A stretch of DNA of 64,000 nt from an uncultured Gammaproteobacteria bacterium (GCA_965230895.1 OZ246394.1:249316-313315); one strand, 5' to 3'; positions 9,345-63,294 are shown, numbered from the stretch's first letter. Program-made: numbers and translations. Notes: generated by a model from the letters alone, not told the origin.

Positions 9345-9373
9345 GGGGATTCTGAAACAAGTTCAGAATGACA
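9345..9373 (-). repeat. 29-nt hairpin repeat, copy 1 (minus orientation: tgtcaTTCTGAACTTGTTTCAGAAtcccc)
   Basis: 8-bp stem attctgaa/ttcagaat with loop cttgt. One of four copies with covarying stem positions (see findings). Lies 50 nt downstream of the minus-strand gene ending at 9426. Confidence 0.8.
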
Positions 9374-9425
9374 GTTCTAGAGATTGCCGCGTCGCTTTGC
9401 TCCTCGCAATGACGGTAAGTTGATA

Positions 9426-9689
9426 CTATCCCTTCAGCAGCTTTTCCAGCATGGTGGTGAATATTTGATTTGCTTCTTCTCTTGAAAAATTCTTCCCGTT
9501 GATTGAATCATTGGCCATAGAGTTCAGTTCTTCTATGACTTCCGCTAGGTGTTTATCCTTTATTATTTTATTCTTGGATTGCTCAGTGATGCCGATCATT
9601 GTGACTGAACTGAACGTTCTTTTGCCTTCGATGTATTCAAGGATTGATTCTAAAAGTCTGGTTTTTAGTTGCTGCTCTCGGTCATTCAT
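9426..9689 (-). CDS. hypothetical protein (87 aa), translationally coupled to the upstream XRE regulator
   Basis: Start overlaps the XRE stop (ATGA). Confidence 0.5.
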   Translation of the reverse strand: MNDREQQLKTRLLESILEYIEGKRTFSSVTMIGITEQSKNKIIKDKHLAEVIEELNSMANDSINGKNFSREEANQIFTTMLEKLLKG

Positions 9690-9889
9690 ATAAGTTCATT
9701 TACTTTCACTCTCAGTTGCTTGGCAATCTTCTGGAGCAGTTCAAGTGAAGGTTGCTTTCTTCCCTGCTCGATATGGCCCATATGCGTTCTGCTGATATTT
9801 AAATATTCTGCAAACTTCTCTTGCGTTATGCCAGAGGACTTCCTAAGCTTCTGAACGTTTTTCCCTAATTGCTTATATGTCTTACTCAT
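9686..9889 (-). CDS. XRE-family helix-turn-helix transcriptional regulator
   Basis: 67 aa. LRKSSGITQEKFAEYLNISRTHMGHIEQGRKQPSLELLQKIAKQL is a classic Cro/C1-type HTH. Confidence 0.8.
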   Translation of the reverse strand: MSKTYKQLGKNVQKLRKSSGITQEKFAEYLNISRTHMGHIEQGRKQPSLELLQKIAKQLRVKVNELI

Positions 9890-9993
9890 ATAATAATTAT
9901 CAATAGCTACCTACTATCAATCTACAAGCTGTAAGCTAGCATTTAGCTTCAGCCCGAATTCGCTCCAAACTCTATCTAAATTATAGTAACCTT

Positions 9994-10016
9994 AAACTCT
10001 ATTTTAAATAGAGTTT
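9994..10016. promoter_or_regulatory. near-perfect palindrome aaaCTCTATTT-t-AAATAGAGttt in the divergent XRE / hydrolase intergenic region (operator candidate)
   Basis: 8-bp arms ctctattt/aaatagag around a single centre base, about 105 nt upstream of the XRE start codon. Confidence 0.4.
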
Positions 10017-10103
10017 TTGAAGAAAGCAACTGAAGTGATGACGATTAAGAAGATTAAATAAATAAGTTTGACAAGCCAATCTGATCCGTGATTTACTGGA
10101 TGT

Positions 10104-11940: not shown

Positions 11941-12351
11941 TTATTCGGCTTTCTTTCCTGCGATGTTTACCATCCATTCGATGCCGAACTTATCAGTCAG
12001 CATACCAAATGTATCTCCCCATGGAGCTTTGTCCAAAGGTGCCGTGATGTTTGCACCTTCTGAAAGTTTTTCCCAATAACCTTTGAGCTCTGTTTCATCT
12101 TCTGCTCCTCCACTGAGTGAGATATTTCCAATCTTTCCTGGCGTAGCTACCATGTGACTTGGTGTATCAGAACCCATAATGGTAAAACCTTTATCGGTTA
12201 TCAATTCTGAATGCATGAGGCCTTCCTCATCAGGCATACCTGATTCTTTGAAAGTGCTCATGGTTAAATTACCGCCAAAGACTGTTTTGTAAAATTCCAT
12301 TGCCTCCTGAGCGCCGCTTTTGAAGTTAAGATATGGATTTAATTTTGTCAT
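11941..12351 (-). CDS. VOC/glyoxalase-superfamily protein (PhnB-like)
   Basis: 136 aa. NPYLNFKSGAQEAMEFYKTVFGG matches the PhnB/3-demethylubiquinone-methyltransferase-like family start (YLxFxGNAxEAxxFY). Confidence 0.7.
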   Translation of the reverse strand: MTKLNPYLNFKSGAQEAMEFYKTVFGGNLTMSTFKESGMPDEEGLMHSELITDKGFTIMGSDTPSHMVATPGKIGNISLSGGAEDETELKGYWEKLSEGANITAPLDKAPWGDTFGMLTDKFGIEWMVNIAGKKAE

Positions 12352-12426
12352 ATGAAACTCACCTCCTTTCGTTTATGCAAAAAGTATAGCAGAGGAAAGT
12401 TATGAGATTCGTAATAAGATTATTTT

Positions 12427-12455
12427 TGTCATCCCGAACTTGTTTCGGGATCCCC
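12427..12455 (+). repeat. 29-nt hairpin repeat, copy 2 (tgtcATCCCGAACTTGTTTCGGGATcccc)
   Basis: Stem atcccgaa/ttcgggat; same loop and flanks as the other copies. Confidence 0.8.
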
Positions 12456-12639
12456 AATTAAACTTTATTCTTTTCTGTTCTTTGACCGCAAAGAACCAAA
12501 CTCTTCAGCAGGCAGTGCTCGCTAAAAATCTTTTCTTATTCACTAAAAGACTTTCGTCTTTCTTCACGTTCATTCGTCGGATTTTTTTAACGCTGCGCGC
12601 TGATTGCTGAACTGTCGGAGATCTTTATAGAAGTTTTTG
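12456..12639 (-). ncRNA. conserved non-coding element A, homologous to 58049-58285; immediately 3' of a minus-strand gene
   Basis: Shares ordered blocks with element B (ttgttctttgaccgcaa, accaaaSctct, cgYtaaaaatc, tttttaacgct...). Contains ctttg-accg-caaag hairpin. No ORF. Strand inferred only from position after gene stops. Confidence 0.35.
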
Positions 12640-12885
12640 CTATTGGCCGACTCGGGGATTTGTGGCAAGGATGAAGTCAATAACTTCTGAAGCAAATGTT
12701 CCTACAATTGGGACAAGGTTTACGTTCTTTGCAATGATACCTAATATATAAAAGAAAACAGCCAAACCGACTGTTGCACCCACAGCCCATGCTACTCCAC
12801 CGATAAAGTTGTTCATGATGATTTCATACCAATGAAGCCGAGTGCTGGAGCGTTCATATGGTTGCATTGGTTTGGGTTTTGCCAT
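12640..12885 (-). CDS. small membrane protein (81 aa, 2 TM)
   Basis: Hydrophobic segments FIGGVAWAVGATVGLAVFFYILGII and VPIVGTFASEVIDFILA. Confidence 0.5.
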   Translation of the reverse strand: MAKPKPMQPYERSSTRLHWYEIIMNNFIGGVAWAVGATVGLAVFFYILGIIAKNVNLVPIVGTFASEVIDFILATNPRVGQ

Positions 12886-20769: not shown

Positions 20770-20853
20770 AAATCGTTTTTAGGCTAAGAAGCCCTGATGC
20801 TGGAATTGGTAGACAGGCTAGCTTCAGGTGCTAGTGTCAGTAATGGTGTGTGA
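20770..20853 (+). tRNA. tRNA-Leu (anticodon CAG)
   Basis: Acceptor GCCCTGA/TCAGGGC, anticodon stem CTAGC/GCTAG with loop TTCAGGT, long variable arm, T-loop TTCGAGT. Confidence 0.85.
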
Positions 20854-20902
20854 GTTCGAGTCTCTCTCAGGGCACATACTATCAACTATAATATAGTGTG
20901 GA

Positions 20903-20946
20903 CCTGCCTGCCGGCAGGCAGGGGTTCGACTCCTCTCTTGGGCACC
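20903..20946 (+). other. tRNA 3'-end remnant (T-arm + 3' acceptor: GGGGTTCGACTCCTCTCTTGGGCACC) preceded by a perfect 20-bp palindrome cctgcctgccggcaggcagg
   Basis: Resembles the 3' end of the adjacent tRNA-Leu(CAG) (TTCGAGTCTCTCTCAGGGCAC) with several changes; no 5' half. Typical of duplicated att-site scars left by tRNA-targeting integrases. Confidence 0.5.
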
Positions 20947-20972
20947 GAGCCAAACTCAGTTAAGAAAACAAT

Positions 20973-21055
20973 GCGGATGTGGTGAAATGGTATACACGCT
21001 ACCTTGAGGTGGTAGTGCTCGCAAGGGCGTGGAGGTTCAACTCCTCTCATCCGCA
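20973..21055 (+). tRNA. tRNA-Leu (anticodon GAG)
   Basis: Acceptor GCGGATG/CATCCGC, anticodon stem CTACC/GGTAG with loop TTGAGGT, long variable arm, T-loop TTCAACT. The last 19 nt overlap the stop-proximal codons of the convergent recombinase gene. Confidence 0.85.
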
Positions 21056-22569
21056 CTGAAGGAGAACTCCTCCGATTCGAATGCTCGAATAGACTGATAT
21101 ATCGGACTAATTGAAGTGTTGTAGTAGTCTGGATAGCCCCATCTGAGTCCCTCAGGGAAAATTGAACACAGTAAGACACGGAGCTGGCTAAGTGTAGACA
21201 TTTGGTATGTTTTTCCTAAATTTACAAATTTCTCTTTCATAAAAGTAATAATAATTTCAAGATTATATTTAGCAAGCAAAGCATCATCCTTTGTAATATG
21301 AAGAGCTGCTATTTGATCTTCAATAAGTTTATTCTGTTCTTTGAATATTTCATCTGAATAAGTTCCATTTAAATTCTTTTGTATAAGCTGTTGACGCATT
21401 TCAGAAAGTCTCTGCATCTCTTTATCTGCTTCATCTCTGCGTTTTTGTAGTTGTGCTACTCGTGCATAATAAGTTCTTCTAAGCAGTGCTATAAAAGCGT
21501 TAAGTGCTTCTTGCGTTGGTGTTATGCCTGATAAATAATGTGCAAGTTCTTTATGTGCTTTATCAGCAGAGATAGAGGTAGGTTTTGGACATTTTTGACA
21601 ACGATAGTAAGCATACTTCATACGTTTCCCTTTACTCCATCCTCCTGTCACAGGATTGCTACATCTATGGCAAATAAGTAGTCTTCGGAGTGGAAATTCC
21701 GCATTATCCTTATTTCTCCTGGTTAATGGAATATTTATATTAGTATTTCTGCCGTCAATCGCTGCCTGAACTCGATAGAAAAGAGCTTCTGATACCATTG
21801 GCAGGTGTTGTCCTTTCACTTCTTCAGGGTACTTTTCTGAGGATAGTATCCCAATATAAAATTTATTGCGAAACATTCGACTTAATGCTTGCTCTCGTAC
21901 AATATGTTTTTTCCCAGCAAAGTTTTGTCTCACTCCCCTATCATTCATTAATTTTGCCATTTCTTTTAATGTCTTTGTTCCTGTTGCCATAAGTTCCCAT
22001 GCAGCTTTTACTTTATCCCATGTTTGTGGATTTTTGACTGCATAACCATTCTCATTTTTGTATCCTAATGGCGGTGTTCCGCTCGTAAGTCCTGCCAAAA
22101 ATCGTGCTCGTAGACCGTTTTTAGTTCGCTCACTTCGTACATCATTATCCATTTGTGCAAAGCTAGCAAGCATAGACTCAATAAAGCGTTCTGTTGGTGT
22201 ATTTCCTGTTGGTTCTGAAGCTGAAAGTATCATTATGCCATAATCTGAAAGCTTTTTCCTAATGGCTAAATAGTCTTGCAACTGTCGGGATATACGATCC
22301 AATCTGTAGACAATTAAAGCATCAATATTCTGTTTGTTCTTTCTGCAATATTCCATAAGTTCCTTAAGCACAGGTCTTCCTGAAATATTTTTTGCAGATT
22401 TCCCTTCTTCTTTAAATACCTTAATAACTGTTAACCCTTTTCTTTCTGCTTCTTGCCTGCAAATTTTTTCTTGGGTTCCGAGTGAGAAATTATCTACTTG
22501 TTCTTCGCTTGAGACTCGAATATATGCAATTGATTGTTTAGTGCCTTTTGTAAAAGTTATTGATTCCAT
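21037..22569 (-). CDS. large serine recombinase (resolvase/invertase catalytic domain + recombinase domain + zinc-ribbon/coiled-coil)
   Basis: 510 aa. IAYIRVSSEEQVDNFSLGTQE (catalytic Ser motif), ...RLDRISR..., and downstream Cys pairs (CHRCSNP...CQKC). Confidence 0.85.
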   Translation of the reverse strand: MESITFTKGTKQSIAYIRVSSEEQVDNFSLGTQEKICRQEAERKGLTVIKVFKEEGKSAKNISGRPVLKELMEYCRKNKQNIDALIVYRLDRISRQLQDYLAIRKKLSDYGIMILSASEPTGNTPTERFIESMLASFAQMDNDVRSERTKNGLRARFLAGLTSGTPPLGYKNENGYAVKNPQTWDKVKAAWELMATGTKTLKEMAKLMNDRGVRQNFAGKKHIVREQALSRMFRNKFYIGILSSEKYPEEVKGQHLPMVSEALFYRVQAAIDGRNTNINIPLTRRNKDNAEFPLRRLLICHRCSNPVTGGWSKGKRMKYAYYRCQKCPKPTSISADKAHKELAHYLSGITPTQEALNAFIALLRRTYYARVAQLQKRRDEADKEMQRLSEMRQQLIQKNLNGTYSDEIFKEQNKLIEDQIAALHITKDDALLAKYNLEIIITFMKEKFVNLGKTYQMSTLSQLRVLLCSIFPEGLRWGYPDYYNTSISPIYQSIRAFESEEFSFSADERS

Positions 22570-22571
22570 GA

Positions 22572-22919
22572 TTATTTTTCGTTGAGTACTTCTTTTAGAG
22601 TCATCCCACTAAAGAGATCTTTTTCAAATTCATCGAGCCATGTATCTATAAGGAATTGAAACTCTGTAGTTACACATTGGATCTTTTCATCAGAAAAATC
22701 TTTCCCTTTTTCTCCAAACATCTTGCGCATTTTTATAACAGTATTTTCTTCTACACCATGGAAAAAGATGTCTTTCAAGCTATTTTCAAGAGGATTAAAT
22801 ATGTCGGCAGGTGGAGAGGCTATATCGGGACTTTCTTTTTGAGGAGTTTTTATATCAGAAGAAATAGAGGTTTCAAATATGGATAATTGTGGTAAGTTTA
22901 TATCTTGCATGATGTTCAA
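22572..22919 (-). CDS. hypothetical protein (115 aa), immediately upstream of and co-oriented with the recombinase
   Basis: Stop is 2 nt before the recombinase ATG. Acidic; could be a recombination directionality factor (speculative). Confidence 0.45.
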   Translation of the reverse strand: MNIMQDINLPQLSIFETSISSDIKTPQKESPDIASPPADIFNPLENSLKDIFFHGVEENTVIKMRKMFGEKGKDFSDEKIQCVTTEFQFLIDTWLDEFEKDLFSGMTLKEVLNEK

Positions 22920-22922
22920 TAA

Positions 22923-23035
22923 CTATCTCCTTAGGGATAGTATATATCTCTATCGGGATAGTGTTCAGTCAATATAAATGATTATTTTTATTGTCTTTCC
23001 GATAATGGCAATCAATAAAGATTATTGCCATAGTT
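22923..23035. promoter_or_regulatory. operator-like repeats in the divergent recombinase-operon / XRE promoter region
   Basis: actatc-N8-gatagt and ctatc-gg-gatag palindromes (gggatagt repeated 30 nt apart), plus aatggcaat-N14-attgccata inverted repeat. Confidence 0.4.
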
Positions 23036-23042
23036 CTTTCAT

Positions 23043-23291
23043 ATGTCATTTTTAGGAAATGATTCTGCAAAAACTCGTGAGCTTAAGAAAGAAGATTATG
23101 CTTTAGCTGAGAAAATCCAAAGATTTCGTAGAGAAAGAGGGATGACTCAAGAAGAACTTTCTGAAAAGATAGGCAGGAATTCTTCATATATTGCTTATGT
23201 TGAAACCCATAGAAGAGGCTTAAGTTTGCCTGTTGTTTATAAACTTGCACGAGTTTTAAAAGTGAAATTGAAAGAGTTGTTTGATTTCTAG
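23043..23291 (+). CDS. XRE-family HTH transcriptional regulator
   Basis: 82 aa. RRERGMTQEELSEKIGRNSSYIAYVETHRRGLSLPVVYKLARVL. Confidence 0.8.
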   Translation: MSFLGNDSAKTRELKKEDYALAEKIQRFRRERGMTQEELSEKIGRNSSYIAYVETHRRGLSLPVVYKLARVLKVKLKELFDF

Positions 23292-23299
23292 TTTAAGTT

Positions 23300-23375
23300 G
23301 CTCCTCAGTATAGACTTGAACTACAACCTTCTCGTAAACTGCGAGCTGCTCTACCAATTAAGCTACCGAGGAATA
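23300..23375 (-). tRNA. tRNA-like gene, most likely tRNA-Asn (GTT), with an atypical anticodon loop (CAGTTTA)
   Basis: Acceptor TCCTCGG/CTGAGGA (one G-U), D-arm GCTT-AATTGGTA-GAGC, T-arm TGTAG-TTCAAGT-CTATA. The anticodon stem has a 27-43 mismatch and A33/T37 in the loop, so identity is uncertain. Confidence 0.5.
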
Positions 23376-23383
23376 TTATTATC

Positions 23384-24574
23384 TTAAAATTGTAACAGAA
23401 TTTTTAGTTTCTTGACGGCTTCTTTGATTTCTTGCTTTGATGCACTTGAGAAGGAAATTCGGATATTCGAAGAATATTTATCACCGAAATAATTCCCTGG
23501 AACAATTGCTATGCCTTGGTCAAGTAATGCATCACAAAAATCTTGTGCATCACGAATCAATTTCCCTGCAATAGTTTTGCCGAAGAAAGAACTTATATTA
23601 GGAAATAAGAAGACTGCCCCTTCTCCATCAATATCTTTGAATCCTTGTATATCTCTTAATCCATCTTTAAGCAATGATTTCCTCTCACTAAATTTATTAA
23701 TTGTAGCTAAAAGAGATTTTTGATCTCCAGCCCAAGCTTCTATTGCCGCGACTTGTGCAAAAGAAACCGGGTTAGCTGTTACTTGTGCTTGTAACATCGA
23801 CATTGTCTTTATTACTTTATTATTCCCACATATAAATCCTATTCTAAACCCGCTCATTGAGTAATCTTTTGAAGTCGAACCAATCGTGAACGTTCTGTTA
23901 AATGCATCCTGCGAGATTGTTGCTATTGGAATATGTTTATTATTCCCATATGTAAAATTCGCCATTGTTTCATCAGAAATAATAAATAAATTCTTTTCAT
24001 TTGCCACATCAGCTATCATTTCAAGCGTTTTCTTTTTGTAAACACGGCCTGTGGGATTAGAAGGACTATTAATAATAATTATTTTAGTTTTTGGAGATAT
24101 AACTTCCAAAAGTTCTTTTTTTGTTGGTTCAAAATTATTCTCTTCTTGTGTATTAACAATAACTGGGATTCCACCCGCAATTTTTACTTGTTCTATATAA
24201 GTTTCCCAATAAGGAGCAAGTATTATTGTTTCATCACCCGTATTTAGAAGTGAGAAAATGCTGTTAAATAGTGCGTGTTTTGAGCCACAAGAAATAAGGC
24301 AATCAATTTGCGGATTATACTGCAAGTTATATTTTTTACGTAGCATGTGACATACTGTTTCTTTAAGTTCAATAATTCCTGAGTAAGTTGTATATTTTGT
24401 TTGGTTATCTTGAATTGCCTTAATTGCAATATCTTTAATATTTTGTGGAGTTTTTACATTAGTTTCAATTGTATCTAATCGAATAATTTTCTTGCCATTG
24501 CTTTCAAGAATTTTTATTTTCTCTTTAATAACATTTGTTGGTGAAATTCGTATGTCCTTAAGATTGTTCCGCAT
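23384..24574 (-). CDS. class I/II PLP-dependent aminotransferase (aspartate-aminotransferase fold)
   Basis: 396 aa. ...IINSPSNPTGRVY... and ...TFTIGSTSKDYSMSGFRIGF... (PLP-lysine region). AT-rich codon usage. Confidence 0.75.
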   Translation of the reverse strand: MRNNLKDIRISPTNVIKEKIKILESNGKKIIRLDTIETNVKTPQNIKDIAIKAIQDNQTKYTTYSGIIELKETVCHMLRKKYNLQYNPQIDCLISCGSKHALFNSIFSLLNTGDETIILAPYWETYIEQVKIAGGIPVIVNTQEENNFEPTKKELLEVISPKTKIIIINSPSNPTGRVYKKKTLEMIADVANEKNLFIISDETMANFTYGNNKHIPIATISQDAFNRTFTIGSTSKDYSMSGFRIGFICGNNKVIKTMSMLQAQVTANPVSFAQVAAIEAWAGDQKSLLATINKFSERKSLLKDGLRDIQGFKDIDGEGAVFLFPNISSFFGKTIAGKLIRDAQDFCDALLDQGIAIVPGNYFGDKYSSNIRISFSSASKQEIKEAVKKLKILLQF

Positions 24575-24671
24575 TGGAGTTTTATACTAAAAGTAGAGTT
24601 AATAGTTATTTTCCATCTTGAAAAAAATAGCTATGTTTGAGATTATACACTAATCGCTCTAGCTTTATATA

Positions 24672-26006
24672 ATGAAAAAAAAGTATATCATACATTTAGA
24701 GAAATTATTACAGAACAAGCATAAAGAGAATGAAGCGATTGCACTCCCCTGTTGGATAAAAGGAAAACGACTCTATAAAGACGTAATGTTTCTAGACATA
24801 ACTGATTCCACTGGCACTATTCAAGTTATTGCAAAAAAAGATCTAATGGGCGAAGAAGATTTTAAGCGTTTAAAAAATACTCCTCAGGAATCTTGTATAG
24901 AAGTAGAATGTGTTGCATCAACAGATCCAGTTAGTAAAGAAAAGAGTATTTTTATTAAGAAGTTCAATTTAGTGGGTGAATGGAAATTGAAATTACAGCC
25001 AGGACCTCGTTCTGATTTTGACGTTTTCTCCTCGGAGAACTCTGATTTTCTTCTTAAAAATAGACATCTTTATATCAGAAATCCAAAAGTAATGGCTATG
25101 TTAAAGTTTCGACATCAAATGATGGGTGCTGTACATGAGTGGTATCGAAAAAATGGATTTATAGAGATTACTGCTCCAGTTTTGACACAACTTCCTTTAT
25201 ATGAAGATGGGAGCGCGCTTTCTCTTAAAATTGATAAGGATGATATTTATCTAACGCAATGTGTAGGATTTTACTTAGAGAGTGCAGTTGCAGCATTTGA
25301 GAAAGTATATAATATTGGTCCGAGTTTTCGCGGTGAAGAAAGTAGAAGCAAACGGCATTTGATGGAATATTGGCATATCAAAGCAGAAGTCGCATTTATT
25401 AATTTAGAGGAAGGTCAAAAGATGGTTGAAGATTTATTAGCATTTATTGTTAATGATCTTATGGAGAATGGTCAAGATATTCTCAAAACGTTAAATGCTC
25501 AACCTGCGCTAGAGATATTAAAAGCACCTTTCCCTAAAATTACTTATCGTGAAGCAGTTAAATTACTTAATGATAATGGACACTCTTTTACATTTGGCAA
25601 AAGTCTGAGTTCTTTAGAAGAAGGCATTCTAGCAGAAAAGTTTACGACTCCTTTTTGGGTTGTGGGTATTCCGAAATCTTTAGAGCCATTTCCTTATGTC
25701 ATAGATCCAAAAGATGCTGAGGTCACAAGAGTCTCAGATCTTATTGCTCCAAGAGGGTATGGAGAGCTTTTAGGAGTAGCCGAAAAGATATATGATATTG
25801 ATGAACTTAACTCAAGAATGAAAGATAAAGGGAAACTTGATAATAAAAATTACAAATGGGTTCAAGAATTACGAGAATCTGGATATTTTCCACATGTTGG
25901 TTTTGGAATGGGAGTTGAAAGATTTATCCGTTATATTCTTGGGCAAGAACATGTTCGAGATGCAATACCTTTCCCTCGAGTATTTCGAAGAAAAATATAT
26001 CCATAA
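24672..26006 (+). CDS. class IIb aminoacyl-tRNA-synthetase homolog, AsnRS/AspRS-like (with N-terminal OB-fold)
   Basis: 444 aa. N-terminal OB-like segment (LPCWIKGKRLYKDVMFLDITDSTGTIQVIAKKD), motif 2-like FRGEESRSKRHLMEYWHIKAEVAF, motif 3-like GFGMGVERFIRYILG. Confidence 0.65.
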   Translation: MKKKYIIHLEKLLQNKHKENEAIALPCWIKGKRLYKDVMFLDITDSTGTIQVIAKKDLMGEEDFKRLKNTPQESCIEVECVASTDPVSKEKSIFIKKFNLVGEWKLKLQPGPRSDFDVFSSENSDFLLKNRHLYIRNPKVMAMLKFRHQMMGAVHEWYRKNGFIEITAPVLTQLPLYEDGSALSLKIDKDDIYLTQCVGFYLESAVAAFEKVYNIGPSFRGEESRSKRHLMEYWHIKAEVAFINLEEGQKMVEDLLAFIVNDLMENGQDILKTLNAQPALEILKAPFPKITYREAVKLLNDNGHSFTFGKSLSSLEEGILAEKFTTPFWVVGIPKSLEPFPYVIDPKDAEVTRVSDLIAPRGYGELLGVAEKIYDIDELNSRMKDKGKLDNKNYKWVQELRESGYFPHVGFGMGVERFIRYILGQEHVRDAIPFPRVFRRKIYP

Positions 26007-26011
26007 AGATT

Positions 26012-26521
26012 ATGACAAATACAAAATATTCTATTGAACCTCTCGACATTAAACATGCAGACCCACTTACTAATTGGTTTAATACATTTGTTGATCAAGA
26101 TCTAGGTGTTGTAGAGAATTTTCATGTAACCGTGGATTCCGAAAGGAGTTATATTGAAGATTACCTCTCTACAATTAAGACAGGCGAACCTATGTCATAT
26201 ATTATTTCCCATGATGAAATTATTGTTGGAAAAGTCGATATCCGTCCGTTTTCAAGATATATTGATAAACATGTTGTGGAGTTAGGTTTTGGAATGCTAA
26301 AGGACCATCCTGAAGCAGGTAAGCAACTCCTTCAATTTATTGAAGAACCTTTGAAGAAAAGAAATCTCGAAGTTGTACTCTATTTTATTTTAGCTCGTAA
26401 TAATTATTTTAGAGAACTTTTCAAACTATCTGGGTTTAAAGAAGTTGGTAAAATTGATAACTTTTATAAAGTAGATGAAGGTTATGACGCAAGAATTATT
26501 TTAGAAAAGATTTTGAAATAA
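26012..26521 (+). CDS. GNAT-like acetyltransferase-fold protein (tentative)
   Basis: 169 aa, 6 nt after the aaRS-like stop. Beta-strand/helix pattern and VVELGFGM... segment consistent with the acyl-CoA N-acyltransferase fold; weak. Confidence 0.35.
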   Translation: MTNTKYSIEPLDIKHADPLTNWFNTFVDQDLGVVENFHVTVDSERSYIEDYLSTIKTGEPMSYIISHDEIIVGKVDIRPFSRYIDKHVVELGFGMLKDHPEAGKQLLQFIEEPLKKRNLEVVLYFILARNNYFRELFKLSGFKEVGKIDNFYKVDEGYDARIILEKILK

Positions 26522-26559
26522 TTACTTCACTTATTGCTATATTTTCTCATTACTCAAGT

Positions 26560-27093
26560 TTACATTATATTATTAAACATAAATCCAATCATTGTTGGAG
26601 CATCAAAAATTTTACTCTTCTTGATCATATCCTGTATTTTCTTAGGCTCCACATATATAATGTCAATATCTGACTCAGAATCATCGAAATTGACCGAGTC
26701 TATCGATTGAGGTTTAGCGGCTATGAAGTGGCATACTTGTGAAGTTGCTCCTTTATTAAGCATACATTTGCCAAGATAAGTTATCTCATCTGGTTGTGCA
26801 ATAAGTCCTGTCTCTTCTTTTAATTCACGAATACCTGCTGTAGTAACATCTTCCCCTTCATGAAGTAAACCCATTGGAAATTCAGTCATACGTGCGTTTG
26901 CAAGATATCTATATTGCTCAATAAGGACATATTTATTTTTATAAACAGGAACAATTACTACAATATCATTCTTCTTATAGTGCTCATAAACACCTTCTTT
27001 ACCATTTGGAAAAACTATCTCATCGCGGAAAACTTGCATGTGTTTTCCTTTATAACACTGTTCTGAAGATATACGTTTATATTCACCTCGCAT
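26560..27093 (-). CDS. Nudix hydrolase
   Basis: GLLHEGEDVTTAGIRELKEETGL is a clear Nudix box (Gx5Ex7REUxEExGU). Confidence 0.8.
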   Translation of the reverse strand: MRGEYKRISSEQCYKGKHMQVFRDEIVFPNGKEGVYEHYKKNDIVVIVPVYKNKYVLIEQYRYLANARMTEFPMGLLHEGEDVTTAGIRELKEETGLIAQPDEITYLGKCMLNKGATSQVCHFIAAKPQSIDSVNFDDSESDIDIIYVEPKKIQDMIKKSKIFDAPTMIGFMFNNIM

Positions 27094-27102
27094 AGTTCAC
27101 GA

Positions 27103-28176
27103 TTAATTAATTTTTACATATGGACTGGCAGCATACCGTTTGCGTCCTTCTGTATTTAGCTCTCTAACCATTGTACCAGATATGTTATATCTTGGAGTAG
27201 GAAGTACAATTATTTCACTATCGAATTCTCTGCCGACTGTTTCTATAGCATCACCTACATCTAATGGATCAGCATCTCCTCGTACAGACAAAAATATAGC
27301 ATTTCCGCTATTAATTAAGTAATTAGAAACAGGATCATCTTCTCTCGCTTTGGCTATACGAGATAACAATGTATCACTCCCCATTACATGACGACCTCTT
27401 CCTTGAGAATCCATGCTTGCAACTAATTGTCTATACTCTATAACTTCTTCTACTTCTGTTAAATCACTTGGAATACCAAGCACAGTCACTCTTTCATGAT
27501 CTGCAAATCCTCTGACAAGATTATCTACTCTATCTGAAAAATTATCGCCAATAGATTTTTCAGTAGATCTTGTGATAGTACTAACCATAACTCTTCGGTC
27601 TTTTATGCCTTTATTCAATAAAACTCCTTCTACTTGTTCTGCGACTTCCGCATGTCCTACATGAGGAAATGGATTAAATGAACCTGGATATTGAGCAATT
27701 GTAACATTATCAGAACTAAGAAGCCCTTCTGCATGCCCTACTGTAAGAATCTGGCCTAATCTTGTTAAATCTCTTTCACCTGTACAAAATCCCATATTTT
27801 TCCTGTTAGCAGCTAAAAAATCTGCTACAACTTCAGGATCTCCAACTTCTGCAACATCCTCAAATTGATTTAAGAAGCTATGTGCTCGAGCTTCTGCCAT
27901 AGTGCTAAATTCGCTTCTCGGAGTTTCAGAGTCAAACTCAGATCCTCCTTTATAAGAACCTAACACTCTTCCAACTCGACCAAGTCTTTCTCCTGAACAG
28001 ATTTCTAATATATCTAAAGGTTTTTGTCCAGTACGAGCAACTCGTATTTCTTCGCCCAATAAAGTTCCCATAGGGACAGAACTTGAATCTGTTGTTAAAG
28101 GGGTGTGTAAGCGGTTTATTGATTGAAGGAAACCAATCTTATTTCTATATACTGATGCATCTGCTTCGGATCTCAT
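27103..28176 (-). CDS. nucleotidyltransferase of the HxGH cytidylyltransferase-like superfamily (PPAT/NadD-like C-terminal domain) with about 165-aa N-terminal domain of unknown function
   Basis: YPGSFNPFPHVGH (T/HxGH motif) and C-terminal ISGTMVRE (ISxTxxR motif). Confidence 0.6.
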   Translation of the reverse strand: MRSEADASVYRNKIGFLQSINRLHTPLTTDSSSVPMGTLLGEEIRVARTGQKPLDILEICSGERLGRVGRVLGSYKGGSEFDSETPRSEFSTMAEARAHSFLNQFEDVAEVGDPEVVADFLAANRKNMGFCTGERDLTRLGQILTVGHAEGLLSSDNVTIAQYPGSFNPFPHVGHAEVAEQVEGVLLNKGIKDRRVMVSTITRSTEKSIGDNFSDRVDNLVRGFADHERVTVLGIPSDLTEVEEVIEYRQLVASMDSQGRGRHVMGSDTLLSRIAKAREDDPVSNYLINSGNAIFLSVRGDADPLDVGDAIETVGREFDSEIIVLPTPRYNISGTMVRELNTEGRKRYAASPYVKIN

Positions 28177-28203
28177 ACTATATTATTGAGCAGGTTGTTA
28201 ATT

Positions 28204-29115
28204 TTAATCTATATAGCTCGGTAAAGCAATTTTGCCAAAAATTCTTTCAGACATTTGATTTAATTGTTTATAACTTTTAATTACTCCTGCTTCATTTAAT
28301 GAATGTAATACCTTATATGTATCATCATGGTTTGGAAGAATATATCGAAATCCTTTGTTATCAATTTCTTTGTGTATCCCTTTATATTTTTTGTCTACTG
28401 AAACGGGATAGAGGTCTGTTTTTTGTTTTTTAGCTATATCTTGAAACATAACCATGCTCGGATTAAACTCAATTTCTAATCTATTGCAAATCTTTTGAAT
28501 TACATTCTCTACACCTCCATCTGGATGTTCAAAAACTTTCATAACTACCATGCTTGTATCAATTCCTTGATCTTGTGCACTGATTATTGTCCCCAAAAAA
28601 CAATTATATGCTGCGATTAGATTCTTTAAAGCTAATTGTCCATATTTTTTATAAGCTTCATCCAGTGTTTTGGGATCTCTCGTTATCATCCAATATTTAA
28701 GCCAACCATTATAAATAGCAAGAGGATCTCTTGTTATTCCTAGTATCTTTGTTTTTTTTATAAATTCAGCCTCTGATACTCCTGCGTGTTCCGCCGCTAG
28801 CTGCAAAACACGGGTTGGATAGTGAACAATCATAGAGGGGGTTATTGGACCATATGTTTCTTTTAAAAATACTGATTTACCATTGCCAGGCATTTGGATA
28901 GTAATAGGTTCTTTGCCTTGATCCGTGGGGTATGCAATTGCATTTCTTAATACATCTTCACCAAATGCATCAAAACTAGATGAACATGATAGAACTTTAC
29001 TCATGGCGGTAGTTCCTCCTCTTCCTACGCCAAGCGTAATTATCATATTTGGATAACCATTGGGAAAGTGAATGTATTTCGCATAATCTTCAGGTTTCAG
29101 AAATTCTTTTTTCAT
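28204..29115 (-). CDS. PAPS-dependent sulfotransferase
   Basis: 5'-PSB-like P-loop ITLGVGRGGTTAM and 3'-PB-like LGITRDPLAIYNGW (RDP) motifs in correct order and spacing. Confidence 0.7.
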   Translation of the reverse strand: MKKEFLKPEDYAKYIHFPNGYPNMIITLGVGRGGTTAMSKVLSCSSSFDAFGEDVLRNAIAYPTDQGKEPITIQMPGNGKSVFLKETYGPITPSMIVHYPTRVLQLAAEHAGVSEAEFIKKTKILGITRDPLAIYNGWLKYWMITRDPKTLDEAYKKYGQLALKNLIAAYNCFLGTIISAQDQGIDTSMVVMKVFEHPDGGVENVIQKICNRLEIEFNPSMVMFQDIAKKQKTDLYPVSVDKKYKGIHKEIDNKGFRYILPNHDDTYKVLHSLNEAGVIKSYKQLNQMSERIFGKIALPSYID

Positions 29116-29172
29116 ATTCTAGGAGGCTGCAAAGTCTCGACAATTATATCATAATAATCTACAATTGCTTTT

Positions 29173-31913: not shown

Positions 31914-31971
31914 TATGCAATCTCTTAAATTAGTAATGATCCCCTACTTATAGCAATTTCTTGTGAACAAA

Positions 31972-33603: not shown

Positions 33604-33618
33604 GGATCGAAGCTTGAA

Positions 33619-33879: not shown

Positions 33880-33953
33880 GGTGATTCTATCACAAAATTC
33901 AGTATTTTAAGCACACATAACCAAAAAGATGTATAATATCTGAAGAAGATATT

Positions 33954-34154: not shown

Positions 34155-34320
34155 TTTACTGCACGTTTCTTCTTATAATGTCTTTTCGTCTTTGAGTAGC
34201 TTGAACCTTGCGGCAACATTTTGTCATCAGCTACACTTTCTTGATCTTTATAAACAAGGATTAGTTTCCAAATCCAAGGCAAAAAGTGTTCAAAAGAAAA
34301 TGCATCAGGGGCACAGACTT

Positions 34321-52955: not shown

Positions 52956-53207
52956 ATGAGTTACTTTGTTTACATATTACAATGTGCTGATGGGACGTAC
53001 TATACAGGCAGTACCAACGACGTTGAGAAAAGAGTTCTCACACATAATACGAGTAAAACCGGTGCGAAATATACAAAGTCCCGAAGACCTGTGAGACTTG
53101 TTTATCAGGAAGAACTTGAAGATAAAGGAAAAGCTTTAACGAGAGAAAATGAGATTAAACGATTGAGTAGAGCAGAGAAAATCCGATTGGTACATTTGAT
53201 AAAATGA
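52956..53207 (+). CDS. GIY-YIG nuclease-domain protein (YhbQ/UPF0213-like)
   Basis: FVYILQCADGTYYTGSTNDVEKRVLTHN (GIY...YTG...R). Confidence 0.75.
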   Translation: MSYFVYILQCADGTYYTGSTNDVEKRVLTHNTSKTGAKYTKSRRPVRLVYQEELEDKGKALTRENEIKRLSRAEKIRLVHLIK

Positions 53208-53211
53208 TTGT

Positions 53212-53574
53212 GTGATTATATTTATTTTAAATTTTCCTTATACGTTTTTTGGTCTTATATTAGGATTAATATCAATCCCGACATCTGTAGGCATTCATAA
53301 AAAGCCTTTTGCAATCATAATATATATTAAGAGCTTTTGGTGGAGCTTCATGAGAGGATCGAGAGCAAAGACCTGTGGGAATGTCGTTCTATTAAGTAAT
53401 AGAATTTTAAAGAATGATTTAGAGCATGAGTTAATTCATGTTCAGCAGGCTGAACGATATCCATTTATCTTCCCTTTTCTTTATTATAATGAGTTCTTAT
53501 TTAAGGGCTATAAATCAAATAAATTTGAAGAAGAAGCTCATAACTCGTCTAATAGTACCTATAAAGATAATTAA
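53212..53574 (+). CDS. small membrane-associated protein with HExxH motif (putative metallopeptidase-like)
   Basis: N-terminal TM helix, then LEHELIHVQQAE. Confidence 0.4.
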   Translation: MIIFILNFPYTFFGLILGLISIPTSVGIHKKPFAIIIYIKSFWWSFMRGSRAKTCGNVVLLSNRILKNDLEHELIHVQQAERYPFIFPFLYYNEFLFKGYKSNKFEEEAHNSSNSTYKDN

Positions 53575-58048: not shown

Positions 58049-58285
58049 TTTCTTTTTGTTCTTTGACCGCAATTCTTTTCTTGTGCTTTGTGCCGACAAA
58101 GTACCAAAGCTCTGCCTGTCGGCAGACAGGTCTTCGGCTAATCAGTACTCGTTAAAAATCATTTCTATTCCCGCTAAAGGACACGTTTCGCGATCGCTTC
58201 ACTTGCTGTCCTTTTTAACGCTTCATTCCAATGGTTTTCTTAACACTCCGTTCTGAGCGCCGAATCAATTAATTTATTAATATCA
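58049..58285 (-). ncRNA. conserved non-coding element B, homologous to 12456-12639; immediately 3' of obgE
   Basis: Same ordered sequence blocks as element A (ttgttctttgaccgcaa...accaaagctct...cgttaaaaatc...tttttaacgct...). Contains cctgtc-ggca-gacagg and ctttg...caaag hairpins. The 66-aa plus-strand ORF here is probably spurious. Confidence 0.35.
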
Positions 58286-59996: not shown

Positions 59997-60584
59997 ATGA
60001 GTGAAAACGAGATGAAAAATACTGTTTACTTAGTTTCTTTTATCCTTTCACTTCTACAAGTCTTTTTTCCATCGTTTGTCCCTGATAATTTATCCAAAAC
60101 AGATCACCTCCCTACTCCGGCTCCGACAGCAGTTCTTGGGGAGCAAACTGCTGTTTCAAGCGAGTCAGCAAAAGTTATAAGAGTGGTTGATGGTGATACC
60201 ATTCGAGTTTCACTGAACAATCAGGAGAAAACGATCCGATTGATTGGGATAAATACACCTGAAACTGTTGATCCACGAAAAGAGGTAGAATGCTTTGGGA
60301 AAGAAGCTTCAGATAAAGCAAAAGAATTACTTTCAGGACAGGATATTTATCTTGAATCAGATGAATCACAAGGAAACACCGATAAGTACGATCGATTGCT
60401 TCGGTACGTGTGGTTGATGGACGGAAGATCGTTTAATAAACTGATGATTTCCCAAGGATATGCTTACGAATATACTTACGATTTACCTTACAAATATCAA
60501 GATGAATTTAAACGAGCACAAGCTCTTGCACAGGAATCGAAAGTCGGATTGTGGGCGGATACAACGTGTGGAAAAAGTTATTAG
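59997..60584 (+). CDS. secreted thermonuclease (SNase/micrococcal-nuclease family)
   Basis: VVDGDTIRV...IRLIGINTPET...YDRLLRYV... matches SNase catalytic residues. N-terminal TM/signal. Confidence 0.8.
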   Translation: MSENEMKNTVYLVSFILSLLQVFFPSFVPDNLSKTDHLPTPAPTAVLGEQTAVSSESAKVIRVVDGDTIRVSLNNQEKTIRLIGINTPETVDPRKEVECFGKEASDKAKELLSGQDIYLESDESQGNTDKYDRLLRYVWLMDGRSFNKLMISQGYAYEYTYDLPYKYQDEFKRAQALAQESKVGLWADTTCGKSY

Positions 60585-61273
60585 TCGATGTTTTCTTTTT
60601 TGAAGGTTTCTTTAATTTCACTAAAGCTTGTAGACTTCTTCTCCGGCTTTAACTCTTTCTTTGCTCGGATGTATTCAATAATTGGTGGAACAAGTGACAA
60701 TAAAATTATAAGGAAGATGGCTTTTTCAAAGTTGTCTTTGATAATTGGTAATGATCCGAGGAAATAACCTGCAACGGTAAGAGATGTGACCCAGATGAAT
60801 CCGCCAACGACATTGTAGTAAAGGAATGTTTTGTAGTCCATGCTTCCCATGCCTGCGACAAATGGTGCAAAGCTACGTACGATTGGAAGAAATCGTGCAA
60901 GAATGATCGTTTTTCCACCATGTTTTTCAAAGAACTCACGAGTTGTTTCAAGGTGTTGTCTGTTAAAGAGTTTTGAATTTTCTTTATTGAAGACTTTATG
61001 TCCAGTTTTGTTTCCAATCCAATAGTTAACTGAATCTCCAAGAATAGCTGCAACTAAAAGTGTGACATAGACAACCCAGAAATTGAGATATCCACTTCCT
61101 GCGAGACTTCCAACGACAAAAAGGAGCGAATCTCCTGGAAGAAAAGGTGTAACGACAAATCCAGTTTCAGCAAAGATAATTCCAAAAAGAAGGACGTATA
61201 CCCACGGTCCAAACATATTAATAAAGTTTGCGAGGTGCTCATCAAAGTGTAAAAGTAAATCAATTAATTCCAT
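60581..61273 (-). CDS. DedA-family membrane protein
   Basis: ...GDSVNYWIGNKTGHK... and ...ILARFLPIVRSFAPFVAGMG... (SNARE-associated/DedA motifs). Confidence 0.8.
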   Translation of the reverse strand: MELIDLLLHFDEHLANFINMFGPWVYVLLFGIIFAETGFVVTPFLPGDSLLFVVGSLAGSGYLNFWVVYVTLLVAAILGDSVNYWIGNKTGHKVFNKENSKLFNRQHLETTREFFEKHGGKTIILARFLPIVRSFAPFVAGMGSMDYKTFLYYNVVGGFIWVTSLTVAGYFLGSLPIIKDNFEKAIFLIILLSLVPPIIEYIRAKKELKPEKKSTSFSEIKETFKKENID

Positions 61274-61292
61274 AGCTCAAGTATAACACATT

Positions 61293-61321
61293 TGTCATCC
61301 TGAACTTGTTTCAGGATCTCC
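61293..61321 (+). repeat. 29-nt hairpin repeat, copy 3 (tgtcATCCTGAACTTGTTTCAGGATctcc)
   Basis: Stem atcctgaa/ttcaggat; same loop and flanks. Confidence 0.8.
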
Positions 61322-61335
61322 AATTAAAAGTTTTT

Positions 61336-62166
61336 TTATATCTTTTGAAGTCGTTTTACCCTTTCTTCAACAGGAGGATGTGTAGACAATAATTTCATCA
61401 TTTGTCCGCCCAAACCACCAGCAGGATTTTCAATATAGAGTGATGACATTGCTGGGTTTACTTGCGCTGGTGCGCGTCGAGTTGAATCATGGATTGCCAA
61501 AAGCGCATTTGCTAAGGCCTTCCCACTTCCGATTGTTTTGGCACCAGTATGATCTGCACCAAATTCTCGTTGTCTTGAAATAGCCATTTGTACAAGCGAA
61601 GCTGCTATCGGGACAAGAATTGCAGCAGCTATAGCGATAATCGGATTTGGAGCTTCTTCATCTCCACTATGCGAACTAAAAAAGCTCATATTTGCTAAGA
61701 ATGAAATAACACTGGCAAGCACAGCTGCAACTGTAGCGACGAGGACATCACGATTCTTAACATGCGCAAGTTCATGAGCCAGAACTCCTCGGAGTTCATC
61801 TTTGGATAGAATTTCTAAGATACCTTCTGTTACCGCAACTGATGCATGACCTGGACCTCTACCTGTTGCAAACGCATTTGCTTGGCGATCTGGGGTGATG
61901 TAAAGATCTGGCATTGGAATATCAATTCTTTTTGAAAGATCTTCAATCATTGCATAAATTTCAGGATATTTTTTCTTATCAAGAGGGACAGCTCTGCTCA
62001 TCTTCAGCGCAAGCTTATCAGAGAAGAAATACATGCCACCATTCATGAGTAATGCAAAGCCAAAGGCCATGTACATAAATTGCTCACCGCCAAAAATTCG
62101 AGCCATTGTAATGATGAGGACACTGAGGACGCCAAGAAGAAATATAGTTTTAATCGTATTACCCAT
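61336..62166 (-). CDS. htpX: protease HtpX (M48 family)
   Basis: HELAHVKNRD (HExxH) within a 4-TM topology; length and layout match HtpX. Confidence 0.85.
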   Translation of the reverse strand: MGNTIKTIFLLGVLSVLIITMARIFGGEQFMYMAFGFALLMNGGMYFFSDKLALKMSRAVPLDKKKYPEIYAMIEDLSKRIDIPMPDLYITPDRQANAFATGRGPGHASVAVTEGILEILSKDELRGVLAHELAHVKNRDVLVATVAAVLASVISFLANMSFFSSHSGDEEAPNPIIAIAAAILVPIAASLVQMAISRQREFGADHTGAKTIGSGKALANALLAIHDSTRRAPAQVNPAMSSLYIENPAGGLGGQMMKLLSTHPPVEERVKRLQKI

Positions 62167-62261
62167 AAACGTAGTATAACAATTTCATCGGTTTCAATCA
62201 AATGTGGTAGATTTCCCATTTAGCCCTGAAATTCTTAAGCTAATCTTGTATAATACTATGT

Positions 62262-63248
62262 ATGGATTTTGTTTCCGCTATATTAATTGTTATTGGATTA
62301 GTTCTTTTTGAAACTGTTAGTTCAATTGATAATGCTGTCATCAATGCTCAGGTTCTGGCCACAATGAGTGACAAGGCGAAGAAGTGGTTCCTTACATGGG
62401 GACTTCTTGTCGCAGTATTCCTGATGCGTGGTTTGCTTCCTTTCGCGATCATCTGGGCAGTCAATCCTGCACTTGGTCCGTGGGGTGCGATTACTGCAGC
62501 TTTCAGTGCCGACCCTGCTGTGAAAGAATCTGTTGAGCAATCCGCACCAGTGCTTCTTGCTGGTGGTGGTACGTTCCTCCTTTTCCTTTTCTTTCATTGG
62601 CTATTTATGGAACCAAAGCATTACGGTATTCGCGGAGAACGAACTTTTGAAAAGCTTGGTGTATGGTTTTATGCTGTTGTTTCTATCCTTTTGGCAGCAA
62701 TTGTATGGTACTCCTTACAGATTGATCCAATGATGGCATTTGGTGCAGTAGTCGGATCTACAGCGTTCTTTATCACACATGGATTTAAAGAAAACGCCGA
62801 AAAGGCGGAGGCGGATTTACTCAATGATAGTGGCAAATCTGATATGAGTAAGATTCTTTATCTTGAAGCGATTGATGCGACATTCTCAATTGATGGTGTC
62901 CTTGGTGCATTTGCTTTCACTTTGTCGGTGCCGTTAATTCTTTTGGGTAATGGTATTGGAGCATTTGTTGTCCGGGAAGCGACGATTAAGGGTATCAATA
63001 CTATTAAAAAATATATTTATCTCAAGAACGGTGCTATGTATTCTGTGTTCTTCCTTGGATGTGTCATGCTTTATGATAGTTTCGGACACCACTTGCCAGA
63101 ATGGTTAACTCCAGTTGCTACGATTATCATCATTTCATACTTCTTTGTTAAATCTCGAAACGAATGGAAGAAAGATCCTGCAAAGATTGCTGCGCTGACT
63201 GGTGCAGAGATGCATCCTCAAAAAAAAGCAAAAAGTAAGAAAAAGTAA
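62262..63248 (+). CDS. integral membrane protein, DUF475/TerC-like
   Basis: ETVSSIDNAVINA (DN motif in first TM). Duplicated topology with a Lys-rich C-tail. Confidence 0.5.
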   Translation: MDFVSAILIVIGLVLFETVSSIDNAVINAQVLATMSDKAKKWFLTWGLLVAVFLMRGLLPFAIIWAVNPALGPWGAITAAFSADPAVKESVEQSAPVLLAGGGTFLLFLFFHWLFMEPKHYGIRGERTFEKLGVWFYAVVSILLAAIVWYSLQIDPMMAFGAVVGSTAFFITHGFKENAEKAEADLLNDSGKSDMSKILYLEAIDATFSIDGVLGAFAFTLSVPLILLGNGIGAFVVREATIKGINTIKKYIYLKNGAMYSVFFLGCVMLYDSFGHHLPEWLTPVATIIIISYFFVKSRNEWKKDPAKIAALTGAEMHPQKKAKSKKK

Positions 63249-63266
63249 TTTTCAACAAAAGGATAT

Positions 63267-63294
63267 GGGATGCTGAAACAAGTTCAGCATGACA
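63267..63294 (-). repeat. 29-nt hairpin repeat, copy 4 (minus orientation: tgtcATGCTGAACTTGTTTCAGCATccc)
   Basis: Stem atgctgaa/ttcagcat. Lies 8 nt downstream of the stop of the minus-strand gene 63302-63808. Confidence 0.8.

Follow-up and report, generated by a model that had tools for sequence, protein, structure and literature searches.

The DNA analysed here is a stretch of 64,000 nucleotides (nt), deposited as part of the genome of an uncultured Gammaproteobacteria bacterium (GCA_965230895.1 OZ246394.1:249316-313315; hereafter the window), which contains four copies of a short hairpin element between its genes. The copies were located with the pattern GTCATNNNGAACTTGTTTCNNNATC, a 25-mer with 19 fixed bases (GTCAT-NNN-GAA-CTTGT-TTC-NNN-ATC) that matched the window exactly four times and without a single mismatch. 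By chance 0.01 matches were expected (100 shuffles), and four were reached by no shuffle. Allowing up to 3 mismatches in the 19 fixed bases, with the six variable stem positions left aside, yielded no further copy in the window. When folded as single-stranded DNA (ssDNA), all four copies adopted an 8-bp stem with the 5-nt loop CTTGT (-5.3 to -7.3 kcal/mol, z -3.4 to -4.5). They varied solely at stem pairs 3 and 5, where each change was compensated on the other arm, and the four copies represented four distinct stem alleles (Table 1). The coordinates and compensated stems described in an earlier note on this DNA were thereby confirmed. In an alignment that included 50 nt on either side, identity was limited to about TGTCAT...ATC(C/T)CC(A) and the flanks were unrelated; copies 2 and 3 had CCAATTAAA in common, which is the AATTAAA-type 3' flank that the note had seen at two copies. 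Because the identity did not extend beyond the hairpin by more than a few nt, the copies are not pieces of one larger duplicated segment, an origin that would have refuted the note's reading.

All four copies were intergenic, as had been claimed before. A co-oriented open reading frame (ORF) of 87 amino acids (aa) ends ~52 nt upstream of copy 1, and the ATG of a 97-aa ORF follows 29 nt after the copy. Copy 4 occupies the convergent gap between the TerC/DUF475 gene and the DUF4385 gene, ~7 nt past the stop of the latter, with which it is co-oriented. Copies 2 and 3 are antisense to both of their minus-strand neighbours, the DUF5665 and VOC/PhnB-like genes and the htpX and DedA/VTT genes respectively, and the division of the copies into two that follow co-oriented genes and two that are antisense was therefore described correctly. 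No T-tract or terminator-like structure was called at any of the four sites, where the stems are followed by CCCC, CTCC or CCCA, in line with the remark that no U-tract directly follows the stem. Rfam covariance models at gathering score recognized 8 tRNAs in the whole window and nothing else, and searches around two regions at E<=1 added no other family.

Table 1. Features of the window. Positions are counted from its first nucleotide.
Feature	Position	Strand	Description
Hairpin copy 1	9345..9375	-	ac-TGTC-ATTCTGAA-cttgt-TTCAGAAT-CCCC; allele TCT/AGA; fold -5.3 kcal/mol, z -3.8; 25-mer at 9348-9372
Hairpin copy 2	12425..12455	+	tt-TGTC-ATCCCGAA-cttgt-TTCGGGAT-CCCC-AATTAAA; allele CCC/GGG; fold -7.3 kcal/mol; 25-mer at 12428-12452
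Hairpin copy 3	61291..61321	+	tt-TGTC-ATCCTGAA-cttgt-TTCAGGAT-CTCC-AATTAAA; allele CCT/AGG; fold -6.1 kcal/mol; 25-mer at 61294-61318
Hairpin copy 4	63266..63296	-	tt-TGTC-ATGCTGAA-cttgt-TTCAGCAT-CCCA; allele GCT/AGC; fold -6.7 kcal/mol; 25-mer at 63269-63293
87-aa ORF	9426-9689	-	co-oriented with copy 1
VOC/PhnB-like gene	11941-12351	-	neighbour of copy 2
DUF5665 gene	12640-12885	-	neighbour of copy 2
DedA/VTT gene	60581-61273	-	neighbour of copy 3
htpX	61336-62166	-	neighbour of copy 3
TerC/DUF475 gene	62262-63248	+	neighbour of copy 4
DUF4385 gene	63302-63808	-	neighbour of copy 4
GIY-YIG gene	52956..53207	+	83 aa, UPF0213-like; PF01541, 62.8 bits; divergent from greA; unflanked by hairpins
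Large serine recombinase	21040-22569		Resolvase plus Recombinase domains; adjoins two tRNA-Leu genes
tRNA-Leu genes	20791-20875, 20973-21056		
Recombinase-domain ORF	32254-33600		Pfam
CGTC-tagged repeat of a second class	9381..9414	-	C-CGTC-ATTGC-GAGGAGCAAAGCGACGCG-GCAAT-C; head-to-tail, 9 nt upstream of copy 1
Intergenic repeat of ~170-190 nt	12456-12640, 58083-58270	-	specific to the lineage of the window; also at 847-1019 of the sister-species contig L319
Composite palindrome	2634-2713		80 nt; GACCTCACCC...GGATGAGGTC; gap between pheS and prephenate dehydratase genes
TATACT boxes	12360-12375, 61276-61290		near the start codons of the genes downstream of copies 2 and 3

Hairpins in such positions might act mainly in the RNA, as 3'-end stabilizers or as the atypical terminators that the note had listed among its options, and classical repetitive extragenic palindromes (REPs) of Escherichia coli can do so. 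Copies 1 and 4, at 52 and 7 nt after stops of co-oriented genes, are placed accordingly; most REPs are reported to be located downstream of an ORF, and their transcription is considered plausible (Di Nocera et al., 2013; PMC3733652). The near-palindromic stem would fold on either strand. The missing T-tracts, however, give the terminator option no support, and copies 2 and 3 are antisense and located just upstream of the TATACT box of the next gene. A terminator also has no role for a strict 5' GTC tag or for the strand asymmetry of the family. Moreover, the orthologous sites in a sister species (see below) lack the hairpin, which implies that the neighbouring genes do not need it, and SsnA, the published partner enzyme of related hairpins, acts on ssDNA and did not bind RNA (Chenal et al., 2025; PMC11893778). 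A function that is mainly at the RNA level is therefore unlikely, and an RNA-level role could be a secondary effect. The TATACT boxes themselves lie ~8-30 nt from the start codons, which suggests very short 5' leaders. They are also present in the sister species (at the equivalent places in contigs L122 and L319), and copy 3 is inserted immediately upstream of one of them.

The hairpin sequence itself gave no match in the full-text literature, and the family was reached via the name of the tag and via GIY-YIG combined with the terms dRS3 and CGTC. CGTC-tagged REPs have been reported from Proteobacteria, Chlorobi, Bacteroidetes, Spirochaetes and Thermotogae (Di Nocera, De Gregorio & Rocco, BMC Genomics 2013; PMC3733652). 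Their class CGTC-2 is defined by an unpaired 5' CGTC, which is often TGTC (CCTC being allowed), an 8-bp stem that starts with A-T/T-A, a 5-nt loop and a short, unpaired 3' tail that is mostly CCA (PMC3733652). In the window TGTC directly precedes the stem in four of four copies, and the same fold, AT-NNN-GAA / CTTGT / TTC-NNN-AT, is found in all four. The copies further resemble CGTC-2 in their short C-rich tail, in their intergenic position between unidirectional or convergent genes and in the presence of several stem alleles per genome. The supplement of the same study (file 4) lists a CGTC-2 repeat in Sulfurovum SUN_0512 that is translated into the peptide RHSELVSGS (PMC3733652). Back-translation of this peptide yields CGTCATTCNGAACTTGTTTCNGGNTC (CGT CAT TCN GAA CTT GTT TCN GGN TC), i.e. 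the hairpin of the window. The differences are that the host of the window copies is not a member of the five phyla listed by Di Nocera et al. but a Levybacteria-like member of the candidate phyla radiation (CPR, Patescibacteria; see below), that the copies are singletons instead of head-to-head dimers, and that their tails (CCCC, CCCC, CTCC and CCCA for copies 1 to 4, then AATTA) deviate from CCA, which is typical of sphingomonad and metagenome copies. The count, which covers the window only, is four copies per 64 kb, all intergenic. The anatomy matches the published CGTC-tagged REP superfamily, and the note's option of a REP-like extragenic palindrome was well chosen.

The same 19-fixed-base pattern was used to scan one genome per species, and the 25-mer was present in at least 120 genome stretches from about 15 phylum-level groups. 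Among the matches listed, the hosts according to record titles were many Bacteroidota, Sphingomonadales, Treponema, Melainabacteria, Nitrospirota and Nitrospinota, in addition to Ignavibacterium (Ignavibacteria), Elusimicrobia, Endomicrobium, two Bacillota, Sulfurovaceae (Campylobacterota) and gamma- and delta-proteobacteria. Also listed were the CPR groups Gracilibacteria, Kerfeldbacteria and 'Patescibacteria group', and one Nanoarchaeota metagenome-assembled genome (MAG), an archaeal host for which the 3.8-kb contig could be mis-binned. The hairpin occurred on a further 107 stretches of viral contigs. Outside the 25-mer the copies among the matches listed had in common a pyrimidine at -1 and +1 and nothing else; at position -1, C was found in 73 and T in 66 of 152 copies elsewhere. 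Relatives differed by a few loop or tag bases only, and inverted pairs or alternating arrays were frequent, with partners that had slightly different loops or a GTCAC tag. An Ignavibacterium MAG, for instance, carries five GAAC-class hairpins of alternating orientation in an array that resembles a bacterial interspersed mosaic element (L034, 1489-1677; alleles GCT and CCC, ~40-nt spacing), and in another stretch (L096) nine copies are interleaved with a longer repeat.

The three stem pairs that the pattern leaves free were all Watson-Crick in 138 of 155 copies (120 unrelated stretches, among the matches listed). Pair 1 was paired in 95% of the copies against 36% expected from the column frequencies and pair 3 in 95% against 65%, and these figures did not change when one copy per locus was taken. 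Mismatched stems are thus far from being as frequent as matched ones, which is what the earlier note had asked to be checked. Nearly all copies belonged to a handful of alleles (GCT, CCT, CCC, TCC and TCT), which indicates a small number of independent compensatory events. Palindromic DNA can, in addition, acquire both halves of a compensated change at once, by template-switch (quasi-palindrome) correction. The proposal that selection acts on the folded structure rather than on the primary sequence can be retained only in part: 19 fixed bases are kept across phyla, and the class is highly conserved in sequence as well as in structure. In the case of the Neisseria enzyme, cleavage was abolished when the palindrome was changed and the hairpin kept (PMC11893778).

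This enzyme, SsnA, belongs to a group of nucleases that are encoded next to hairpins of the same superfamily. In Neisseria the NTS (CGTCATTCCCGCGMAVGCGGGAATCYRG, which contains dRS3), and elsewhere the Ssn-related motifs (SRM), flank homologues of ssnA, the products of which consist of a single GIY-YIG domain and are assigned to CDD family cd10448 (Chenal et al., Nat Commun 2025; PMC11893778). Binding by SsnA requires ssDNA and is restricted to one strand of the hairpin, and the cut is made a few nt upstream of it; the loop is dispensable, and the NTS-ssnA-NTS unit resembles an insertion sequence (IS) (PMC11893778). Binding and cleavage of ssDNA have been published for the Neisseria and Wolbachia enzymes only, on GC-rich hairpins (PMC11893778). 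The window class resembles NTS, dRS3 and SRM in its CGTCAT head, its outer A-T/T-A pairs, its directionality, the tolerance of the loop and of part of the stem to change combined with a requirement for sequence, and in hairpins that bracket a ~100-aa single-domain GIY-YIG gene. It differs from them in being AT-richer (NNNGAA-CTTGT-TTCNNN versus TCCCGCG-MAVG-CGGGA), and no cognate Ssn was seen in the window.

When the ORFs of the at least 120 loci selected by hairpin were clustered all against all, no protein family was recurrent within 300 nt of the hairpins. The small GIY-YIG genes in these loci were, however, adjoined by CGTC-type hairpins in 4 of 4 cases, on both sides in three and only upstream in L064. 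The association was examined in an unbiased set of 80 metagenome loci, chosen solely by similarity to a hairpin-flanked GIY-YIG protein. A GTC-tagged hairpin was present within 200 nt of the gene in 72 of the 80 loci, and the density of such hairpins was 6.2/kb within this distance versus 0.39/kb elsewhere. Control scans with all 64 3-nt tags confined the enrichment to GTC and its register or reverse-complement equivalents. The commonest architecture was hairpin(+)-gene-hairpin(-) with the tags outward (33/80). A comparison of intergenic gaps (9/10 versus 9/41, Fisher p = 1.3e-4) was underpowered, as long spurious ORFs mask GC-rich loci, and it is therefore the density, the control scans with other tags and the architecture that support the association.

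Two classes of hairpin were found in the 80 loci: 33 loci had GC-rich NTS-like hairpins on both sides, 12 had GAACNNGTTTC (the GAAC class) on both sides, and none was mixed. The nearest protein neighbour had the same class of hairpin in 12/14 GAAC-class and 53/55 GC-rich-class cases. The nine closest homologues of the query (73-85% identical), which belong to the 12 loci with the GAAC class on both sides, were flanked by GTCATGCTGAACTTGTTTCAGCATCCA or close variants with a GTCAC tag or with CTC or CTG in the loop, and this is the class of the window. GAAC-class hairpins were also found next to GIY-YIG genes in L079 and L007. In a CPR genome (Kerfeldbacteria, L032) a GAACTTGTTTC hairpin, its tag pointing outward, precedes by 22 nt the start of an Ssn-like gene, of which the visible 53 residues are 55-66% identical to the flanked proteins. 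The hairpin-gene-hairpin result reproduces the published Ssn/SRM association and extends it to the GAACTTGTTTC class. The hairpin class co-varies with the nuclease clade, which suggests that the GAAC class may mark a distinct specificity of ssDNA cleavage. The option of a protein-binding hairpin put forward in the note would hold in its DNA form, by analogy to the published relatives, since hairpins of the same class flank small Ssn-type GIY-YIG genes.

The window itself contains one GIY-YIG gene (Table 1), which is a poor candidate for the cognate nuclease. Its product is UPF0213-like (67 bits to the UPF0213 structure BH0048, for which the hairpin-flanked Ssn homologue scored 26 bits; the two proteins are 38% identical), no hairpins flank it, and the gene is syntenic at 76-81% identity across Levybacteria-like genomes and widespread in CPR. 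The protein is separate from the clade of Ssn nucleases with flanking hairpins. A GTC-tagged hairpin candidate at 53252-53274, 45 nt downstream of this gene, was rejected, being AT-rich and without a stable fold (z -0.8), with ~3 such hits expected by chance.

Classical REPs and REPINs of E. coli and Pseudomonas are mobilized by RAYT (REP-associated tyrosine transposase), an IS200-like enzyme of the HUH-Y1 type, and the same could be imagined for the window hairpins if such an enzyme were encoded elsewhere in the genome. There is a likeness, in that a tagged ssDNA hairpin is recognized by a nuclease with a repeat-flanked single-copy gene and that satellites are scattered intergenically, often as inverted dimers. 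Inverted dimers of the window class are found in other genomes, and its copies are intergenic and polymorphic for presence and absence. The tag, however, is GTC(AT) and not GTAG, and the gene flanked by hairpins encodes a nuclease with the GIY-YIG instead of the HUH-Y1 transposase fold. GTAG REPs are species-specific, whereas the window class is found in several phyla almost unchanged. The Pfam annotation, which covered the called genes on matching contigs and 40 ORFs of at least 90 aa, revealed for the window no Y1/RAYT transposase or IS among ORFs of at least 90 aa, in accordance with the note's statement that no RAYT/IS200-like transposase is co-located, and no recurrent transposase family adjoined the hairpins in the at least 120 loci. 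The hits of an IS200 TnpA probe in the window did not exceed chance, and ~3 Mb of fetched loci yielded none, which is a weak test, as a positive control was lacking. CGTC repeats "apparently lack a dedicated transposase", and no RAYT flanked by them was found (Di Nocera et al., 2013; PMC3733652). Mobilization by a RAYT is for these reasons highly improbable.

The mobile-DNA proteins in the annotation were the large serine recombinase and the Recombinase-domain ORF only. Site-specific recombinases or IS110-type elements might use the hairpins as attachment or target sites, with the spread of the hairpins as a by-product. The presence of these two genes and the 107 viral-contig stretches with the hairpin would agree with this, as does dRS3, a member of the same superfamily and a documented target of a recombinase of Neisseria filamentous phage (Chenal et al., introduction; PMC11893778). 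The copies, however, are all more than 8 kb away from the recombinases, no obvious inserted element lies next to any of them, and the hairpin-gene-hairpin architecture around GIY-YIG genes would be left unexplained. This origin is very unlikely, and attachment by recombinases or phages would be at most an additional use of the repeats. The region 20791-36000 may be an integrated element; the G+C content falls to 0.33-0.36 between about 24 and 36 kb.

To which lineage the window belongs was judged from HtpX, for which the closest named relatives were Candidatus Levybacteria (77% identity), followed by other Patescibacteria. The window thus comes from a CPR bacterium that is Levybacteria-like; its G+C content is 33-41%. 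A sister species from the same sample series (SRR142713xx), the HtpX of which is 93% identical, was available for comparison (NCBI GCA_964507055.1 and the Logan contigs L122 and L319). The hairpin was missing from all four orthologous positions in this species. At the site of copy 3 the gap between htpX and the VTT gene measured 62 nt here versus 23 nt in L122 and L319, a clean difference of ~39 nt, and the more distant relatives L123, L124 and L126 also lacked the hairpin. The gap that contains copy 2 (DUF5665-PhnB) was 288 nt here versus 63 nt without hairpin in the sister species, and the extra DNA consisted of the hairpin and a ~185-nt repeat. For copy 4 the orthologous gap was devoid of the hairpin in L124 (15 nt) and in L319 (173 nt, occupied by an unrelated repeat); L122 was rejected as an empty site, as the longer sister contig has the 173 nt of other repeat there. 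No hairpin followed the gene orthologous to the 87-aa ORF near copy 1, but synteny is lost there. The 20 kb of sister-species DNA that were examined contained no GTC-tagged hairpin. Absence from orthologous sites implies that hairpins are gained and lost on the time-scale of the divergence of species, and the copies therefore turn over like mobile DNA, as mobile satellites are expected to do.

Other repeats were found near the hairpins. The second class of CGTC-tagged repeat, CGTCATTGCGAGGAGCAAAGCGACGCGGCAATC, of which the window copy lies next to hairpin copy 1, has 34 occurrences in 22 loci that had been retrieved for other purposes, and its inner stem is frequently variable. The related contig L323, which has both CGTC repeat classes at other positions, contains an identical copy, and a repeat of this class lies upstream of the Ssn-like gene in L064. 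The window copy showed no significant ssDNA fold (z +0.5). The intergenic repeat of ~170-190 nt has the conserved blocks TTCGGCG.TCAGAACGGAGTGTTAAAAAAATC ... GTCCTTTAGCG ... GATTTTTAACGAGTACTG ... GAAGAGCTTTGGTACTTTGTCGGCACAAAG. One copy abuts hairpin copy 2, and in the sister species the repeat fills the DUF4385/TerC gap, the site of hairpin copy 4 in the window. For 3 sequences RNAalifold predicted one long hairpin and a terminal hairpin with 3 compensatory pairs, and no Rfam match was obtained at E<=1. The repeat could be a miniature inverted-repeat transposable element or a small RNA. Remote from the hairpins, the composite palindrome between pheS and the prephenate dehydratase gene encloses two hairpins of the form CCYTCTCC-N4-GGAGARGG. 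Similar CCTTCTCC...GGAGAAGG hairpins were observed in 17 fetched loci, and the palindrome probably represents another widespread REP-like family.

Taken as a whole, the four elements are probably solitary CGTC/TGTC-tagged REPs of family CGTC-2, belonging to the same superfamily as Neisseria dRS3/NTS and SRM, with recognition of the Ssn type. Whenever the DNA becomes single-stranded, during replication, transformation or repair, the 5'-YGTCAT strand would fold into the 8-bp/5-nt hairpin. A nuclease of the Ssn family, a small single-domain GIY-YIG protein, would recognize the hairpin sequence-specifically by a surface made up of the unpaired GTC tag, the loop and the A-T/T-A (outer) and GAA/TTC (inner) pairs; it would bind the hairpin in ssDNA only and nick a few nt 5' of it. 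The three middle stem pairs would need only to be paired, and this would explain the compensated alleles. The nuclease gene would normally be bracketed by two hairpins with their tags outward, as an IS-like module, of which solitary hairpins would be non-autonomous satellites that are gained and lost between close relatives. The family anatomy, the conservation across phyla with covariation, the hairpin-gene-hairpin arrangement for the exact class (in one CPR genome among others) and the absence from the sister species were all observed here. That the window class is cut like the Neisseria and Wolbachia hairpins would follow by analogy, and a cognate Ssn is presumed to be encoded elsewhere in this genome.

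Several points weigh against this interpretation. A profile made from 80 proteins and compared with all ORFs of the window matched only the GIY-YIG gene at 52956-53207, so that an Ssn-type gene was not found in the 64 kb and the cognate enzyme, if any, lies outside it; the gene that was matched is UPF0213-like, syntenic and equally hairpin-free in the sister species. The printed SRM pattern HGTCWYN(0-2)YYVSBRHN(0-5)WNVSBRGN(0-2)RNCYNB recognizes the Neisseria NTS and neither the sphingomonad GAAC variant nor any of the four copies, nor anything else in the window. Membership of the SRM consequently rests on the association analysis and not on the published definition. A clean insertion or deletion was seen only at copy 3, the sites of copies 1, 2 and 4 differing by larger rearrangements, and deletion in the sister lineage, or recombination, may also account for the absence of hairpins there. 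Four different alleles are unlike the outcome of recent copy-and-paste within a genome. Finally, insertion is not explained by a GIY-YIG nuclease alone.

The elements are not a new type, as the family was described in 2013 and its partner nuclease family characterized in 2025. What is new is modest and consists of the CPR host, of a sequence class that escapes the SRM pattern as printed and of the evidence of recent turnover. This AT-richer class nevertheless shares the hairpin-gene-hairpin architecture, it occurs in Patescibacteria/CPR, where the Kerfeldbacteria genome holds an Ssn-hairpin module, and its sequence changes little between Sphingomonas and CPR bacteria. In database entries CGTC repeats often appear as spurious translated peptides (...CHPELVSGS... 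or ...LKQVQDD..., for example), and annotation pipelines should for this reason mask them. It is conceivable, if rather doubtful, that the GAACTTGTTTC hairpin represents a single Ssn-recognition sequence class, conserved across phyla, that horizontal spread has carried into at least about 15 phylum-level groups, including ultra-small CPR bacteria, possibly DPANN archaea and virus-like contigs, and that is currently mobile in a Levybacteria-like genome without a canonical Ssn nearby. If the full genome were to lack a cd10448 enzyme, the hairpins would be handled by the UPF0213-type protein encoded in the window or by an enzyme acting in trans, from a phage or a host bacterium. Were this true, the Ssn paradigm would come to include a second GIY-YIG clade, and the insertion of CGTC REPs would be easier to explain.

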